Positions 37,887 through 47,159 are shown, counted from the stretch's first letter. The stretch is DNA of 64,000 bases from Candidatus Micrarchaeota archaeon (GCA_038046805.1 JBBSVO010000004.1:32001-96000); one strand, 5' to 3'. Numbers and translations: made by a program. The notes: generated from the sequence alone by a model not told the origin.

Positions 37887-38465
37887 ATATCAAACGATGC
37901 GCCGAAGGACATAAAGGAAACCAATGAGCTGCCAAAACATGATGAAGAGAAAAAACTCCCGCCTCAGCAGAAACACAAGATTCTTCCCGAACCTCATATC
38001 ACTGGACCGCAGCCAAAAGCTTTTCGGCCGGAGCTGAAAATAAAAGAACTTGAAGAGACGGTAAAAAGACTTCAAGCTGAATTTGAAAATTACAAAAAAC
38101 GGGCGGCAAACGAATATTCCGAAAGAATAGATTCGGGTAAAATGGAATTTGCAAATGAAATTCTTCCGTTTGCAGATGAGTTTGAAAATGCACTTCAGCA
38201 TGTTCGCGGGGAGGAACGTAAGGGCATTGAAATGATATTCACAACATTCATGAAATCTCTTAACCAATTGGGTATCAGGCCGATGCAATGTGATGGAAAG
38301 AAATTTGATCCGTATCTTCATGATGCGATAAAGCAAGAGGAAAGCAATGAGGAAGATGGAACCATAATCGCAGTTTTAAGAAAGGGATATTACTACAAGG
38401 ACAAGGTTCTGCGACATGCAGCAGTGATTGTGTCGAAAAAGAAAAAAGAGGATGACGCGATATGA
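37887..38465 (+). CDS. grpE: Nucleotide exchange factor GrpE, probable ATA start
   Basis: RLQAEFENYKKR lies upstream of the first ATG (38142). Frame is open from TAA 37860. GGGTGAT RBS precedes ATA 37887. FDPYLHDA and KGY...VLRHAAV present. Confidence 0.9.
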   Translation: MSNDAPKDIKETNELPKHDEEKKLPPQQKHKILPEPHITGPQPKAFRPELKIKELEETVKRLQAEFENYKKRAANEYSERIDSGKMEFANEILPFADEFENALQHVRGEERKGIEMIFTTFMKSLNQLGIRPMQCDGKKFDPYLHDAIKQEESNEEDGTIIAVLRKGYYYKDKVLRHAAVIVSKKKKEDDAI

Positions 38466-42665: not shown

Positions 42666-43978
42666 TCATTTTTTTCTTAGAGTTCTTCCGATTTTATCTC
42701 GTTCAAGTATGGTTTCTGCCACTTCTGGTTCAAAATGCGCAAGCATTAATTCGAATTTTCTTTCTCCTGCAAAATATCGGTACATATGATGGACTACGGA
42801 ATCACTTACAAGCTGATTTAGGTCTGTTTCCTTATCCCATCTCCTCAACGCATCCAATATGGCAATCATGAACTCCTGTTTGATATCATCATAATCCGGT
42901 TCTGCGAAACATTTCTATTGGCAAAGTGAATGTTCTTATAATCGGAGAGTGTGCGCGATTGAAAAAGAAGTGTTCAAAATACTGAGTTACAAACATACTT
43001 TCCTCTGCTTTGCTCAGTAATCTAAGCTCTGGTAGACGAAGAATTGAAATTCGCTCAAACGGTGTTTCTATCTTTTCCTTTCTGGATTCCCATGCCCTTC
43101 TGGCAATTTCAGTTCTCAATTCCGAGCTTAGTTTAGCCCATCGTTTTCGTATTATTTCGCTTCTTTGTTCGGAGGTCTTTCCTTCCCAGATTTGCCAAAT
43201 TGCCCCCCCCTCTCTGCTCTAAATCAGCAGTTCTCTTTCGTGCTATTTGTTTTCTTTGCCCAGTAGTTTTGTCCTTCCACATCGCCCTGCTTCGCCTGCT
43301 TCGTTCTGCATCTTTTTGAAATGACCTGGCTTTCCTTAAAATTTCTTTTCGTTCTTCATGGCTTTTCTTTGCCCAAAATTGCGAAAGTGCTCTTCTCCTC
43401 TTTACGCGGGTTTTCTCGGCCCGTTTGGCAATTCTTATCCTCCTTTTAGGGGCAATTCTTTTTTCTCTCTTTCTCGCAATCTCGCTCCTTTTTTCAGCAC
43501 CTTTTTGCTGTTCTCGTTTTATTGCGGCATCACTTCTTTCTTCGTTATTTTCCCTCAATGCTATCTGCCAGATTGCAGTTCCTCTTCTTTCTCTTTCCCT
43601 ATTGCAGTCTATGGATATTTTCTTTCTTTGCTCCGAGGTCATTGCGGCAGTTATTTGCACTGTTGTTTTTCCGATTCGTTTTCTTGTTTCCTCTGCTCGT
43701 TGTACAATTTCTCGCAGGTCTTCGGAATTTTTAACTCTTTGACGATAAGACCACAGTTGATTGTCTACTACTTTGCTAGCTTCTTCTGGAGTTAGGTTCT
43801 TTACTTCGCCCCGGGGAAAGTATGCTGCCATGTATTCTTTAGTAGTATCCTGGCCGAGTCCATGCTTGAAAAACATTTCCTGAGCAATACGCTTCCTCGC
43901 TCTGCCTTTTTTCAATTCTGTGGCTAATTTTAATGCGTGAACAGGTAAAAAACGAACATATTTTCTTTTAGGTTGCAT
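42666..43978 (-). pseudogene. Frameshifted basic-repeat protein with C-terminal sigma-70 region 1.2/2-like segment
   Basis: Removing one G from the G8 tract (43203-43210) continues the repeat as GAIWQIWEGKTSEQRSEIIRKRW into ORF 42889-43119. At least one more shift near 42895-42965 joins DYDDIKQEFMIAILDALRRWD. Confidence 0.65.
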
Positions 43979-44041
43979 AAAAATCAGTGACTGCTATATG
44001 TCAGGACAAAACCTCAAACCCGCAACCGAAAACTTAACCTG

Positions 44042-44300
44042 CTCGCACCCTCGGCCCCCCGCATTTTGGATTGTTTCGCGTTTTGAGTTTCGTGTTTTGC
44101 GTCTTGTTTTCGATTCCGAGACGCTGAACTTCAAGACTCGAAACGCAACTTCGCCAAGCGGGTGCTCTGCTATTGCTTACCCAGTTGACTTGTGATTCTC
44201 CAGGGCTTTTACGCTGGAGCGCTTTTGCCCTTATAAAACAGAAGTCAAAAGGGCCCTGAGCTACGAGCCCTAAGCAAAATAAAATTTGGACTCGGAGGGA
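44042..44300 (-). tRNA. Circularly permuted tRNA-Ala(GGC) with two introns: 3' exon 44287-44300, linker 44271-44286, 5' part 44042-44270 with introns 44173-44255 (15/16) and 44064-44151 (37/38)
   Basis: Reassembled 72-nt GGGCTCGTAGCTCAG|TAGCAGAGCACCCGCTTGGCG|TGCGGGGGGCCGAGGGTGCGAG|TCCCTCCGAGTCCA gives a full cloverleaf with G3-U70, A73 and G15-C48; BHB-like junctions. Confidence 0.88.
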
Positions 44301-44355
44301 TTTGCGAATAATTGGTTTCTGGCCTGCAGCCACTAGCTAGTATCCAGTAGCTTAA

Positions 44356-44580
44356 CTATGACGGAGATATGTAAATTACACTGTCTCCACGCAACAGAAT
44401 TGTTCCCATTCCGCGCTTTACTTCGCCATTTATTATTTGCTCTGCATTATCAAGCACTATATTCATGTGAACATCATAAGCAGCCATTACCCCGCGGAAT
44501 TCTACTCCGCCTTTAAGGCCGATAACTACCGTATTGTTCAACGAACCGTTCAATACATCAAATGGTCTTTTTTCTGGCAT
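44356..44580 (-). CDS. Sm-like archaeal protein (SmAP/LSm)
   Basis: RPFDVL, LKGG..FRG.M..YDVHMNIVL, LLRGDSVIYISP. Confidence 0.95.
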   Translation of the reverse strand: MPEKRPFDVLNGSLNNTVVIGLKGGVEFRGVMAAYDVHMNIVLDNAEQIINGEVKRGMGTILLRGDSVIYISPS

Positions 44581-44682
44581 AAATTTTCACCTCTATAAAA
44601 AACTAAAATCTAAACAGATTAAGAACACGACTGAATTTAAAGGTTATCTTTCACACTCCCAGGGTTCGCGACAGATATTATA

Positions 44683-45477
44683 TCACCCCTTTGGCTTCCT
44701 GCCTTTGACCTTTGGAGGTTTTATATCTGGGTATTCCTTGCATAACATCTCCGGATTCGCATATGGTTTATACCCTATAGTCTCCATTACGCGAAGTAAA
44801 AGAAATGCATCCTGAAATTGGTTTCCACTTAGACTTATCTGCTTCAGAACTTCGATAACATTAGTATACGATTTCCGCTTTCCTGTACAGAGTTTCAAAA
44901 CATCTACACTCGGATTTGATGCCCCTGCAAATTGGAAAACTTTAGGAACAAGAGAAAAAACAATTCCGGAAAGTATGCCAGAAACCTCCCACCCCTCAGT
45001 TTTCTGATTAATACTAAGCTTCTTTATCACAGCCCAGTCCTTGTAATGCCCTATAAAAACGATCTGGTCTTCTGATTTTTCTTCTTTTGGCTTAAATGCA
45101 CTTTTGAACATTGAAGGAGTGAGAAAACAAGCAACACCCGCTGATTTGAAAAGCTCTAAAAAGAAACAGCACTCCGCGGCAGGCAAAAGAGTATTTTTAC
45201 CTGCTGCATCAATCAAGGCTGCCCTTAATTCGGATGGTTTTTTTGACTCCAGGAACGAAATGACTGCCGGAAGTCCGCTTCCGTTCAGTTTTATAAAATC
45301 CCGAACTTTTTTAGTATCTATTCCAGAAAAATCAAATGCTGGCTCGTTTATGGAATTTAGAATATCCGCGAGCGCAAATGCTACATCGGTTTCTGAAGCA
45401 CCCCTGAGGGAATAATATATTCCTCTCTTAAAACCCCTAAATTCACCGGAGAATAGAATCTCGTCATTGATTTCCAT
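44683..45477 (-). CDS. DUF2666-like archaeal protein (two related halves)
   Basis: EDQIVFIGHYKDWAVIKKLSI...EVSGILSGI; C-terminal YPDIKPPKVKGRKPK. Confidence 0.6.
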   Translation of the reverse strand: MEINDEILFSGEFRGFKRGIYYSLRGASETDVAFALADILNSINEPAFDFSGIDTKKVRDFIKLNGSGLPAVISFLESKKPSELRAALIDAAGKNTLLPAAECCFFLELFKSAGVACFLTPSMFKSAFKPKEEKSEDQIVFIGHYKDWAVIKKLSINQKTEGWEVSGILSGIVFSLVPKVFQFAGASNPSVDVLKLCTGKRKSYTNVIEVLKQISLSGNQFQDAFLLLRVMETIGYKPYANPEMLCKEYPDIKPPKVKGRKPKG

Positions 45478-45537
45478 GGGGTTCAATTAAACATAAGTAT
45501 TTTAATTGCTTTCCGGCACAAGAACCGAGTATAGATT

Positions 45538-45802
45538 GCTCCTGTAGCTCAGTGAAAGTCTCGGGTCTTGTCTTATGGTCTTGTGTCTCGGTCGCGAGTT
45601 TCGAAACACGACCAAGTGAACGTCGCAACGTTCACGGGTCCATGGAACAAATACTTCGTTCCATCGGAGACGCGGAACACAAGACACGAAACTTCTGTAT
45701 GTAGAGCGCGTGCTTGGTAAGAACCCTTTTTGCGCGGCAAAAAGCGTTTCATCGGAAAACCTAATAAGCACGAGGTCGCGAGTTCAATTCTCGTCGGGGG
45801 CT
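45538..45802 (+). tRNA. tRNA-Thr(GGT) with two introns (18/19: 45555-45700, 146 nt; 37/38: 45720-45766, 47 nt)
   Basis: Spliced GCTCCTGTAGCTCAGTG|GTAGAGCGCGTGCTTGGTA|AGCACGAGGTCGCGAGTTCAATTCTCGTCGGGGGCT; BHB at both junctions; U73. Confidence 0.92.
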
Positions 45803-45950
45803 TTTTACTTCTTCTTATTAGCCCGCATATATACGCTGCCATGTTTGGCGACAAACATGGCTTCCGGGTTGTAATTTGCTGCTTTTAGGCCAACCTAGCG
45901 TCGAAATAGTACAACATCTTGCATGAATAAATAAATGGAGTGGATGCGAG

Positions 45951-47159
45951 ATGACAACTATGAAATACGATCCGCATAATTTCGGCGGTTTGGTGGAAGG
46001 AATGGTGGCGAAGCTCAAAGCAAACGAATACGGGGTTTCTGATGAAAACACGAAAATCATCCTGGACTTCTATTTGGATCTGAGAAGTCAAGGTTTTACG
46101 GATTCGAGGATATGCAAGCATCTGACGATGTTGCGTCTTATCGCCAGAAGGATCACGAAGCCTTTTGATAAACTGACAAAGGAAGATATCAAGCAGTTCG
46201 TGATCGATATCGAATCAGCTAATTATTCAGATTGGACAAAGCACGACTACAAGGTCTCCATCAGATCTCTTTTCAGATGGCTCAAGGGAAATAACGAAAC
46301 CTATCCGGATGAAGTGGACTGGATAAGGGTACACGTCAAGGAAAGGCACAAACTGCCAGAAGAACTGCTTACGGAAGACGAAATGAAGCGAATGGTTGCT
46401 GCATCATCTGAACCAAGGGACAGGGCGCTTGTACAATGTCTTTACGAAACTGGATGTCGAATAAGCGAGCTCCTTACTGTGCAGCTCAAGAACTTGAGTT
46501 TTGACGATTATGGAGCAGTAATACGGGTAACTGGAAAGAGCGGAACAAGGCGAGTGAGGGTAATAGCATGCGTTCAAGCAATTGCAACCTGGTTAGAGCT
46601 TCATCCATGCAAGGATAATCCGGATGCCTATCTTTTTGTTAGGAAATACCAACGAAAAGAAAATCCTGTTCCGTTCAGGTACGAATATGCAGCAAAAATC
46701 ATAAGCACTCTGGCGGATGCTGCGGGAATTAAGAAAAGAGTACACCCTCATTTGTTTCGTCATTCCAGGGCAACAGCGTTGGCCAATAAATTGACCGAAG
46801 CTCAGATGAAGGAGTATTTCGGATGGACGCAGGGAAGCGATATGGCAAGCATTTACGTGCACCTTAGCGGTCGTGATGTTGACGATGCTATTCTTGGGCT
46901 TTACGGTTACAGGAGCGGAAATAAGGAGATTGCAAAGCTTCTAACCTGCCCACGGTGCAACCTCAACAATTCCCCTGGTTCAAAATTCTGCTCAAAATGC
47001 GGGTATACTTTTGATCTTGATCTAGCTATGCAGTTAGAGAAAGAGGATCAGGAATCGATAAATCTTGCTAAACAAATGGTCAAGGACCCAGAAATGCGTG
47101 AGCTCATGTTCAAGAAGATGCTTGAAAACAAGATAGGTTCGTCCAGGGTGCGAATATGA
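45951..47159 (+). CDS. Tyrosine recombinase/integrase with C-terminal zinc ribbon
   Basis: ETGCRISE, GKSG, HPHLFRHS, IYVH, CPRC...CSKC. Confidence 0.93.
   Translation: MTTMKYDPHNFGGLVEGMVAKLKANEYGVSDENTKIILDFYLDLRSQGFTDSRICKHLTMLRLIARRITKPFDKLTKEDIKQFVIDIESANYSDWTKHDYKVSIRSLFRWLKGNNETYPDEVDWIRVHVKERHKLPEELLTEDEMKRMVAASSEPRDRALVQCLYETGCRISELLTVQLKNLSFDDYGAVIRVTGKSGTRRVRVIACVQAIATWLELHPCKDNPDAYLFVRKYQRKENPVPFRYEYAAKIISTLADAAGIKKRVHPHLFRHSRATALANKLTEAQMKEYFGWTQGSDMASIYVHLSGRDVDDAILGLYGYRSGNKEIAKLLTCPRCNLNNSPGSKFCSKCGYTFDLDLAMQLEKEDQESINLAKQMVKDPEMRELMFKKMLENKIGSSRVRI

Follow-up and report, generated by a model that had tools for sequence, protein, structure and literature searches.

A 64,000-nucleotide (nt) stretch of archaeal DNA (Candidatus Micrarchaeota archaeon, GCA_038046805.1, JBBSVO010000004.1:32001-96000; this whole stretch is called the window) contains a real permuted transfer RNA (tRNA) gene, located on the minus strand 3′ of a gene for an Sm protein. 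The order of its parts is leader, tRNA positions 60-73, linker, tRNA 5′ part (positions 1-59) and trailer, so that the 3′ end of the tRNA is encoded before its 5′ end, and the 5′ part is itself interrupted twice. It is highly likely that the locus is a functional circularly permuted tRNA-Ala(GGC) gene with two introns, the RNA of which is probably cut and rejoined three times, circularised and reopened. Permuted tRNA genes are among the rarest RNA encodings, and the archaeal cases in the literature searched are the two of Thermofilum pendens. The present gene adds a second, unrelated archaeal lineage and is the most fragmented case found (four exons, a circle and three rounds of cutting and joining); within the literature searched, no earlier permuted tRNA of a DPANN archaeon came to light, nor any with two extra introns. 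Standard gene finders report no tRNA-Ala(GGC) in the genomes concerned, which would be misread as a missing tRNA.

The positions of all parts are listed in Table 1. The host assembly (G000) is 1.2 Mb in size and 86% complete; two related genomes are referred to throughout: G001, from the same genus, and G021, from a different genus of the family. Exon 3 is followed by neither a T-stem nor an acceptor 3′ strand, and CCA is not encoded after A73. A 13-nt core of the 3′ piece has exactly two exact copies in the 1.2-Mb genome, one here and one at the end of the normal tRNA-Ala(UGC), and hence the 3′ piece is not a chance match. The permuted order had been proposed in a first-pass annotation made from the sequence alone, whose coordinates for the 3′ exon, the 16-nt linker, G1 and the end of the 5′ part are all correct, as is its placement of the locus directly downstream of the Sm gene, now backed by the LSM domain match. 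A tRNA-Ala adjoins the Sm gene in most genomes of the family.

Table 1. Parts of the permuted tRNA-Ala(GGC) locus and its upstream neighbour, 5′ to 3′ (window coordinates, minus strand; BHB, bulge-helix-bulge; a slash within a motif marks a cut)
Feature	Coordinates	Length	tRNA position	Content
Sm/LSM protein gene	44356-44580	74 aa		Directly upstream; Pfam LSM PF01423, E 2.5e-20
Leader	44301-44355	55 nt		CGCA (44306-44303) pairs with T-loop TGCG; AA (44302-44301) with T60 makes the 3-nt bulge bearing the 3′ cut site
3′ piece	44287-44300	14 nt	60-73	T60, CCCTC, CGAGTCC, A73
Linker	44271-44286	16 nt		T-rich, between A73 and G1
Exon 1	44256-44270	15 nt	1-15	Acceptor 5′ strand (G1 at 44270), U8, A9, D-stem 5′ strand (GCTC, 44261-44258), A14, G15
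Intron 1	44173-44255	83 nt	15/16	Carries a repeat module
Exon 2	44152-44172	21 nt	16-37	D-loop 3′ part TAGCA, D-stem 3′ strand (GAGC, 44167-44164), anticodon stem 5′ strand, GGC (44155-44153), G37
Intron 2	44064-44151	88 nt	37/38 (canonical site)	Near-canonical BHB
Exon 3	44042-44063	22 nt	38-59	T38, anticodon stem 3′ strand, variable loop GGGCC, T-stem 5′ strand GAGGG, T-loop TGCGAG ending at G59 (44042)
Trailer	43990-44041			First base C completes the AG/C 5′ cut site; remainder pairs with the leader in G000 only

When the four exons are joined by their coordinates, a 72-nt RNA is obtained that ARAGORN calls as tRNA-Ala(ggc) and that forms a perfect four-stem cloverleaf (-34 kcal/mol) with G3:U70 and A73; the alanine tRNA that the annotation had reassembled, with these determinants and perfect stems, is thus borne out. 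As a control, the same exons taken in genomic order give 0 genes. Folded without constraints, the 356-nt precursor has a minimum free energy structure that contains all four tRNA stems (acceptor, D, anticodon and T) and the CGCA:TGCG helix, and the acceptor and T-stem 3′ strands come from the upstream 3′ piece. The prediction that standard scans would miss the locus proved right: ARAGORN finds 0 genes on the raw window, Rfam gives 0 matches on the window at the gathering threshold and no tRNA match on positions 43000-46500 with E values up to 10, and RF00005 has 20 matches in the whole genome, 4 of them above the cut-off and none at the locus.

All three joints, at the positions given in the annotation, restore loops that are known without interruption. 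The T loop rebuilt at 59/60 (TGCGAG+T) equals the uninterrupted T loop of the tRNA-Ala(CGC) of G000, including an unusual G at position 55 that both share, and the tRNA-Ala(UGC) of the same genome has an ordinary intron at this very site. The rebuilt D loop (AG+TAGCA) matches AGAAGCA in tRNA-Ala(CGC) and tRNA-Ala(UGC) and AGCAGCA in the G021 orthologue, which lacks the intron at that position, while the rebuilt anticodon loop (TTGGCG+T) is the uninterrupted loop of the orthologues in two other genomes of the family, G003 and G005.

As a separate observation on these loops, all three tRNA-Ala genes of G000 combine a 7-nt D loop AG-N-AGCA, without G18 and G19, with a T loop TGCGAGT carrying G55 (window 44257-44168, 44047-44042 and 44300; G000:C6:71794-71946; C6:130039-130155; compare L146:537-614). 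Among relatives, this variant pair recurs, for example, in G003, G005, G014 and a Woesearchaeota contig (L146); G010, G009, G006 and G020 have instead the canonical pair AACGGTA and TTCAAAT. The D and T loops thus seem to change together, which suggests a variant elbow, in which the GC of the D loop would pair with the GC of the T loop.

The search of related genomes 3′ of the Sm gene that the annotation had recommended recovered the same permuted order downstream of the same Sm gene in G001 and G021, with linkers of 17 and 13 nt, respectively, and the joined exons of all three genomes are called tRNA-Ala(ggc) by ARAGORN. In G001 both intron sites are occupied, the one in the anticodon loop by a 79-nt intron of unrelated sequence; the G021 gene has an anticodon-loop intron only, 43 nt long and dissimilar. 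Since G021 has no intron at 15/16, its spliced D arm is directly visible.

In archaea, the splicing endonuclease cuts after the second base of 3-nt bulges that flank a 4-bp helix, a fold known as the BHB motif. At the leader/trailer junction, the T stem is followed by the bulge AA/T60, by CGCA:TGCG with 4/4 pairs and then by AG59/C; the 4/4 helix between T loop and leader and the 3-nt bulge ending at U60 recur in 3/3 permuted genomes (G000, G001 and G021). The earlier description of this junction as BHB-like is retained for the helix and for the bulge at U60 and abandoned for a full two-bulge BHB in 2/3 genomes, where the junction is of the relaxed hBH form, because the second bulge and the outer helix are weak or missing. 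The 59/60 intron of the pre-tRNA-Cys of ARMAN-2 is of the same hBH type and, according to the part of PMC3239211 consulted, is cut in vitro by the epsilon-2 endonuclease. An extended helix between leader and trailer (CTGCAGGCCAGAAA with TTTTCGGTTGCGG) was considered as a defining feature and rejected: it appears in the G000 fold at a level not above that of 200 shuffles of the flanks (z -0.94; -0.25 and -0.83 in the two others) and is absent from G001 and G021, so that the long leader-trailer pairing of the annotation does not hold.

The two introns at 15/16 and 37/38 (83 and 88 nt) stand as annotated. At 37/38, the BHB consists of TTGG:CCAA with 4/4 pairs, a 3′ bulge AA/T and a 5′ bulge CG/A, the latter of 4 nt if the outer helix GTTG:CAAT forms; the corresponding helix pairs 4/4, 4/4 and 3/4 across the three permuted genomes. 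At 15/16, the 5′ site AG/G has a clean bulge of 3 nt, with the D stem on one side and the helix GCCC:GGGT on the other. An alternative pairing GCTC:AAGC just before the 3′ cut (3/4 here) would, on one reading of the sequence, give the HBh′ form; in tRNA-Ile(GAU), whose 15/16 intron belongs to the same family, a perfect GAGC stands there and pairs 4/4 with GCTC.

Within intron 1 lies a repeat module (GCCCTTTTGAC...GGGCAAAAG and a second hairpin) that has many matches in G000 and G001. It occupies 15/16 of tRNA-Ile(GAU), 37/38 of tRNA-Ala(CGC) and both intron sites of the G001 orthologue (window 44254-44185; G000:C6:233170-233090; C6:71836-71910; L022:1590-1670 and 1692-1770). On the evidence of these sequences, introns or inserts appear to move between tRNA sites. 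Intron 2 contains a long, near-perfect hairpin (44075-44148), which gives a chance-level match to a microRNA precursor (22.5 bits, E 0.55).

Expression of the locus is touched by a 317-nt metatranscriptome contig that matches 44260-44576 with 100% identity and comprises the Sm open reading frame (ORF), the leader, the 3′ piece, the linker and exon 1 as far as its 11th nt. It fits a transcript in which the 3′ piece and the 5′ exon are both present and to which the Sm message may also belong, and the Sm gene and the tRNA precursor may be co-transcribed. The route proposed here follows the scheme of Cyanidioschyzon merolae and T. pendens. One transcript, with its start in the last part of the Sm gene or further upstream, would read from leader through trailer, and an epsilon-2-type endonuclease would cut it at three bulge-helix motifs, namely after G59 and before U60, at 15/16 and at 37/38. 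RtcB would join the ends, the G59-U60 joint closing an 88-nt circle made of the 72 nt of the tRNA and the linker. At the acceptor stem, a 5′ end-maker (normally RNase P) would then cut the circle before G1 and tRNase Z would cut it after A73, with loss of the linker, whereupon the CCA enzyme would add CCA and alanyl-tRNA synthetase would recognise G3:U70. We infer the order of the cuts.

Most of the machinery for such a route is encoded in G000. Its EndA (393 aa) is a full-length match to the ARMAN-2 epsilon-2 enzyme 4fz2_A (E 1.2e-137) with the Pfam catalytic domain; RtcB scores 550.8 bits, an RNase Z-like enzyme scores 287 bits, just below the 293-bit cut-off, and an archaeal CCA-adding enzyme is present. 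The presence of EndA, RtcB and the RNase Z-like candidate fits the earlier scheme of three splicing events followed by opening of the circle by RNase P and RNase Z, and the RNase P step, for which the enzyme was not found, stays conjectural. As an aside on RtcB, several relatives (loci L070, L078, L079, L081, L082, L086 and L088) have their RtcB matches in open frames of 937-1212 aa, divided into two or three pieces as inteins would cause; the RtcB gene of G000 is a plain 483-aa ORF.

Several points weigh against a functional permuted gene processed in this way. Among the cut sites, the one after G59 does not lie in a clean 3-nt bulge, the outer helix being confined to G000 and not above shuffles, and the 3′ site of the 15/16 intron lies in no canonical bulge of the predicted fold and was placed by comparison with uninterrupted D loops and arms. 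The linker is T-rich (T4-A-T4), and such stretches of T can act as terminators in archaea, which would speak against one continuous transcript. The RNA-library contig could stem from carried-over DNA, and DNA contigs break near the same ends. The four runs, available as contigs, show no joints, starts or ends, and the circle, the G59-U60 joint and the mature tRNA are predictions from the DNA. A fourth tRNA-Ala gene could sit in the missing 14% of the genome. Finally, RNase P RNA was not found in G000 (RF00373 best score 9.5 bits; RF02357 nothing; a profile from five relatives, best E 0.37), nor were Rpp29, Rpp30 and Pop5 in this 86%-complete assembly, and RF00373 has no match in G001, but is present in 33/41 relatives including G021. 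The place in G000 syntenic with the RNase P RNA of G021 (G000:C6 ~37900-38150) gave no match. On the simplest reading, the RNase P gene is part of the 14% that the assembly lacks; its absence from both genomes of the genus is either a shared assembly gap or a real change.

If the absence of RNase P is real, all leader-bearing tRNAs would be trimmed by a 5′ end-maker not yet recognised. In G000, about 8/12 tRNA 5′ flanks show, by eye, ACCAA and a T-rich TATA-like box ~45-31 nt before the mature 5′ end (for example G000:C6:39651-39720, C3:180853-180922, C6:71724-71793 and C6:129969-130038), and the position of this box implies 5′ leaders of ~10 nt, so that the other tRNAs would need trimming too. 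A bolder version of the permuted gene combines these elements: the permuted pre-tRNA would be the tail of the Sm mRNA, the cut in the leader would make the mRNA 3′ end and, were RNase P truly absent in the genus, another 5′ end-maker would open the circle. It is speculative and, in our judgement, unlikely to hold in this full form.

Another way to make the same tRNA would be from an adjacent split gene, in which the 3′ piece comes from the tail of the Sm transcript and the 5′ part from its own start in the linker, the two RNAs being held together by CGCA:TGCG and by the T and acceptor stems and trans-spliced without a circle. The T-rich linker could terminate the upstream transcript, the need for a 5′ end-maker would possibly be less, and RNase P was found neither in G000 nor in G001. 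The G000 leader contains AAACCAATTATT at about -48 to -37 from G1, by eye the same distance as ACCAA and the T-rich box of most tRNAs of that genome; however, the leaders of G001 and G021 lack such a box, and transcription from ~10 nt ahead of G1 would not do away with the 5′ leader. Promoter-like boxes lie at the end of the Sm ORF in G001 (TTTATATC) and in the AT-rich spacer in G021. Moreover, the RNA-library contig runs continuously from the 3′ piece via the linker into exon 1, and the parts are only 13-17 nt apart. Adjacent split halves are on record for the tRNA-Asp of Aeropyrum pernix (PMC3218864, in the part consulted), but wherever a 3′ part immediately precedes its 5′ part on one strand, the gene was read as permuted in the consulted parts of PMC3218864 and PMC3728597. 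A split gene at this locus therefore appears improbable.

That the permuted gene is a living one and not a decaying relic is indicated by the way it has changed. Among the three genomes, the mature tRNA is identical at 65-69/72 positions, versus 24-25/40 in the leaders, 22-25/40 in the trailers and 33-48 of 79-88 in the anticodon introns, values close to the level of unrelated sequences under the same scoring. Two changes are compensatory, both from C-G to T-A: one at 27:43 in G001, the other at 6:67 in G021, a pair that joins the upstream 3′ piece to the downstream 5′ exon. On the alternative, a duplication or rearrangement would have left a dead locus, with GCY codons read by an unassembled tRNA-Ala(GGC) or by tRNA-Ala(UGC); the 86% completeness of the assembly leaves room for this, and the mature tRNA is so far a predicted product. 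Against it, the four exons are kept in three genomes and two genera while introns and flanks diverge, and CGCA and its bulge in the leader are kept exactly where a cut is needed. The check for another tRNA-Ala(GGC) suggested in the annotation points the same way: G000 has three tRNA-Ala 3′ ends only, one per anticodon (GGC, CGC and UGC), and no second GGC anticodon arm reading as a tRNA was seen by eye in the assemblies of G000, G001 and G021. GCU and GCC make up 22.8 codons per 1000 in 472 long ORFs. We regard a dead locus as very improbable.

Misassembly, which the first-pass annotation had listed among the refuting outcomes, is very unlikely, because a contig from another study bridges the junction: in one run of that study, not flagged as a possible source of the assembly, a 151-nt DNA contig covers 44220-44370 (the Sm end, 3′ piece, linker and exon 1) and a 237-nt contig covers 43912-44148, with exon 3 running into the trailer and not into the 3′ piece. 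A 17-kb contig covers the whole stretch, its run being possibly the assembly's own source. A mis-join at repeated tRNA or intron sequence is conceivable, since the genome has further copies of the 5′ exon and of intron 1 and such repeats can confuse assemblers, but it is practically negligible given these contigs and the same order in G001 and G021.

The surroundings of the gene in the family give indications about its origin. Normal-order tRNA-Ala(GGC) occurs in ten other genomes of the family, seven of them with a 59/60 intron. It lies 3′ of the Sm gene without intron in G003, G014 and G013, and with a 59/60 intron in G005, G002, G024, G006, G009 and G010; in G020 it lies elsewhere, in normal order and with a 59/60 intron, and in G007 the Sm site holds tRNA-Ala(UGC). 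The three permuted genes have in common the end of the leader (CTATCGCAAT in G001 and G021, TTATTCGCAAA in G000), the core of the linker (TTTTATTTT) and the trailer start CA. Because these elements are shared, the permutation most likely arose once, in the common ancestor of the two genera, from an Sm-adjacent tRNA-Ala(GGC) with an existing 59/60 intron; this single origin, read from the shared flanks, is a proposal. On this reading, leader and trailer would be the two halves of the ancestral 59/60 intron. As a rough guide to relationships, glutamyl-tRNA synthetase of G000 shares 70% identity with that of G020, 69% and 58% (two pieces) with that of G021 and up to 63% with the others; G001 gave no match. 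RtcB was set aside as a tree marker on account of the very long frames in relatives and of G021 lying outside its sample.

The published model, in the portion of PMC3728597 consulted, starts from a gene duplicated in tandem, the outer parts of which are later lost. The linker and the preceding TCCA match the 5′ flank of tRNA-Ala(UGC) at 15/20 bases (by eye), which fits that model (PMC3728597), and tandem pairs of tRNA-Ala(GGC) and tRNA-Ala(CGC) 9-17 nt apart occur in other DPANN contigs (L146 and L162). The family thus offers a natural before-and-after series for testing whether permuted genes derive from intron-bearing tandem copies. Integration by the tyrosine recombinase encoded 1.6 kb from the tRNA locus (window 45951-47159, plus strand; 402 aa, Pfam Phage_integrase, E 7.8e-24) was considered as a cause and set aside: the displaced 3′ fragment would be expected downstream, at the far end of the element, and not 16 nt upstream.

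The locus is of a known kind, with the same junction and logic as earlier cases; what is new is the lineage, the enzyme type and one more intron than in any case found. The host, upheld as a DPANN archaeon of Micrarchaeota type, is a mesophilic groundwater organism with an epsilon-2-type enzyme, whereas T. pendens, a crenarchaeon, is hyperthermophilic and has an (alpha-beta)2-type endonuclease, and C. merolae, whose permuted nuclear tRNA genes were reportedly described by Soma in 2007, is a eukaryote. As far as the consulted part of PMC3218864 goes, T. pendens has two permuted tRNAs, each with one canonical intron. Shared with them are the archaeal setting, the 3′ piece directly upstream on the same strand, a 59/60 junction with a leader/trailer BHB, an intron at 37/38 and the status of single-copy gene for the anticodon; the T. 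pendens genes differ in having linkers of 7 and 1 nt, an encoded CCA and one extra intron, against 16 nt, no CCA and two introns here. Unlike in T. pendens, the normal-order state with a 59/60 intron survives in sister genera.

In C. merolae, four genes combine permutation with one intron each, for example tRNA-Arg(CCU) at 14/15, and the circular intermediate was demonstrated by reverse transcription PCR (PMC3728597, in the part consulted). The C. merolae set shares with the present gene the 59/60 join, seen in its tRNA-Ala(UGC), the unencoded CCA and the combination of permutation with an ectopic intron (PMC3728597 and PMC3218864, same limitation). It differs in having one intron in each of those intron-bearing permuted genes, and the consulted text describes no series of unpermuted orthologues. 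ARMAN-2 (Candidatus Micrarchaeum acidiphilum) belongs to the same phylum-level group and shares the full-length homologous endonuclease and the 59/60 hBH introns; the consulted part of PMC3239211 reports many tRNA genes with non-canonical and multiple introns there, and all those described in it keep the normal exon order, none being permuted. The split tRNA-Asp(GUC) of A. pernix and Thermosphaera aggregans likewise has two nearby parts and a BHB join, but with the 5′ half first, the parts ~160 nt apart, separate transcripts and the join at 37/38 (PMC3218864, in the part consulted).

The annotation's remark that no doubly interrupted permuted tRNA was known agrees with the literature searched, in the consulted parts of which the T. 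pendens and C. merolae genes have one intron. No permuted DPANN tRNA was found in that literature, although a case given only in supplements or in the colour figures of PMC5829648 and PMC3239211 would escape such a search.

Scans for further cases gave few candidates. In G000, a T-loop-split scan yielded 22 rows, an acceptor-hairpin scan 181 and a T-arm-then-acceptor scan 5; among the rows listed, only the Ala(GGC) locus reads as a tRNA by eye. The permuted pattern occurs in 2/401 sampled genomes of the phylum (G000 and G001, G021 lying outside the sample), and the reversed control gave 0 hits. A scan of public genome contigs returned at least 119 stretches, and most of the 80 listed are tandem tRNA genes of bacteria; L146 and L162 each contain normal tRNA-Ala genes in tandem, and L147 represents the same DNA as the locus of G021. 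The two contigs from a metagenome-contig scan are the same DNA as the G001 and G021 loci, and no instance beyond the three permuted genomes was seen among the public-contig matches listed. Directly 3′ of the trailer, on the same strand (window 43133-43978), lies a 281-aa ORF for a very basic protein without a Pfam family, which occupies the same place in G001.

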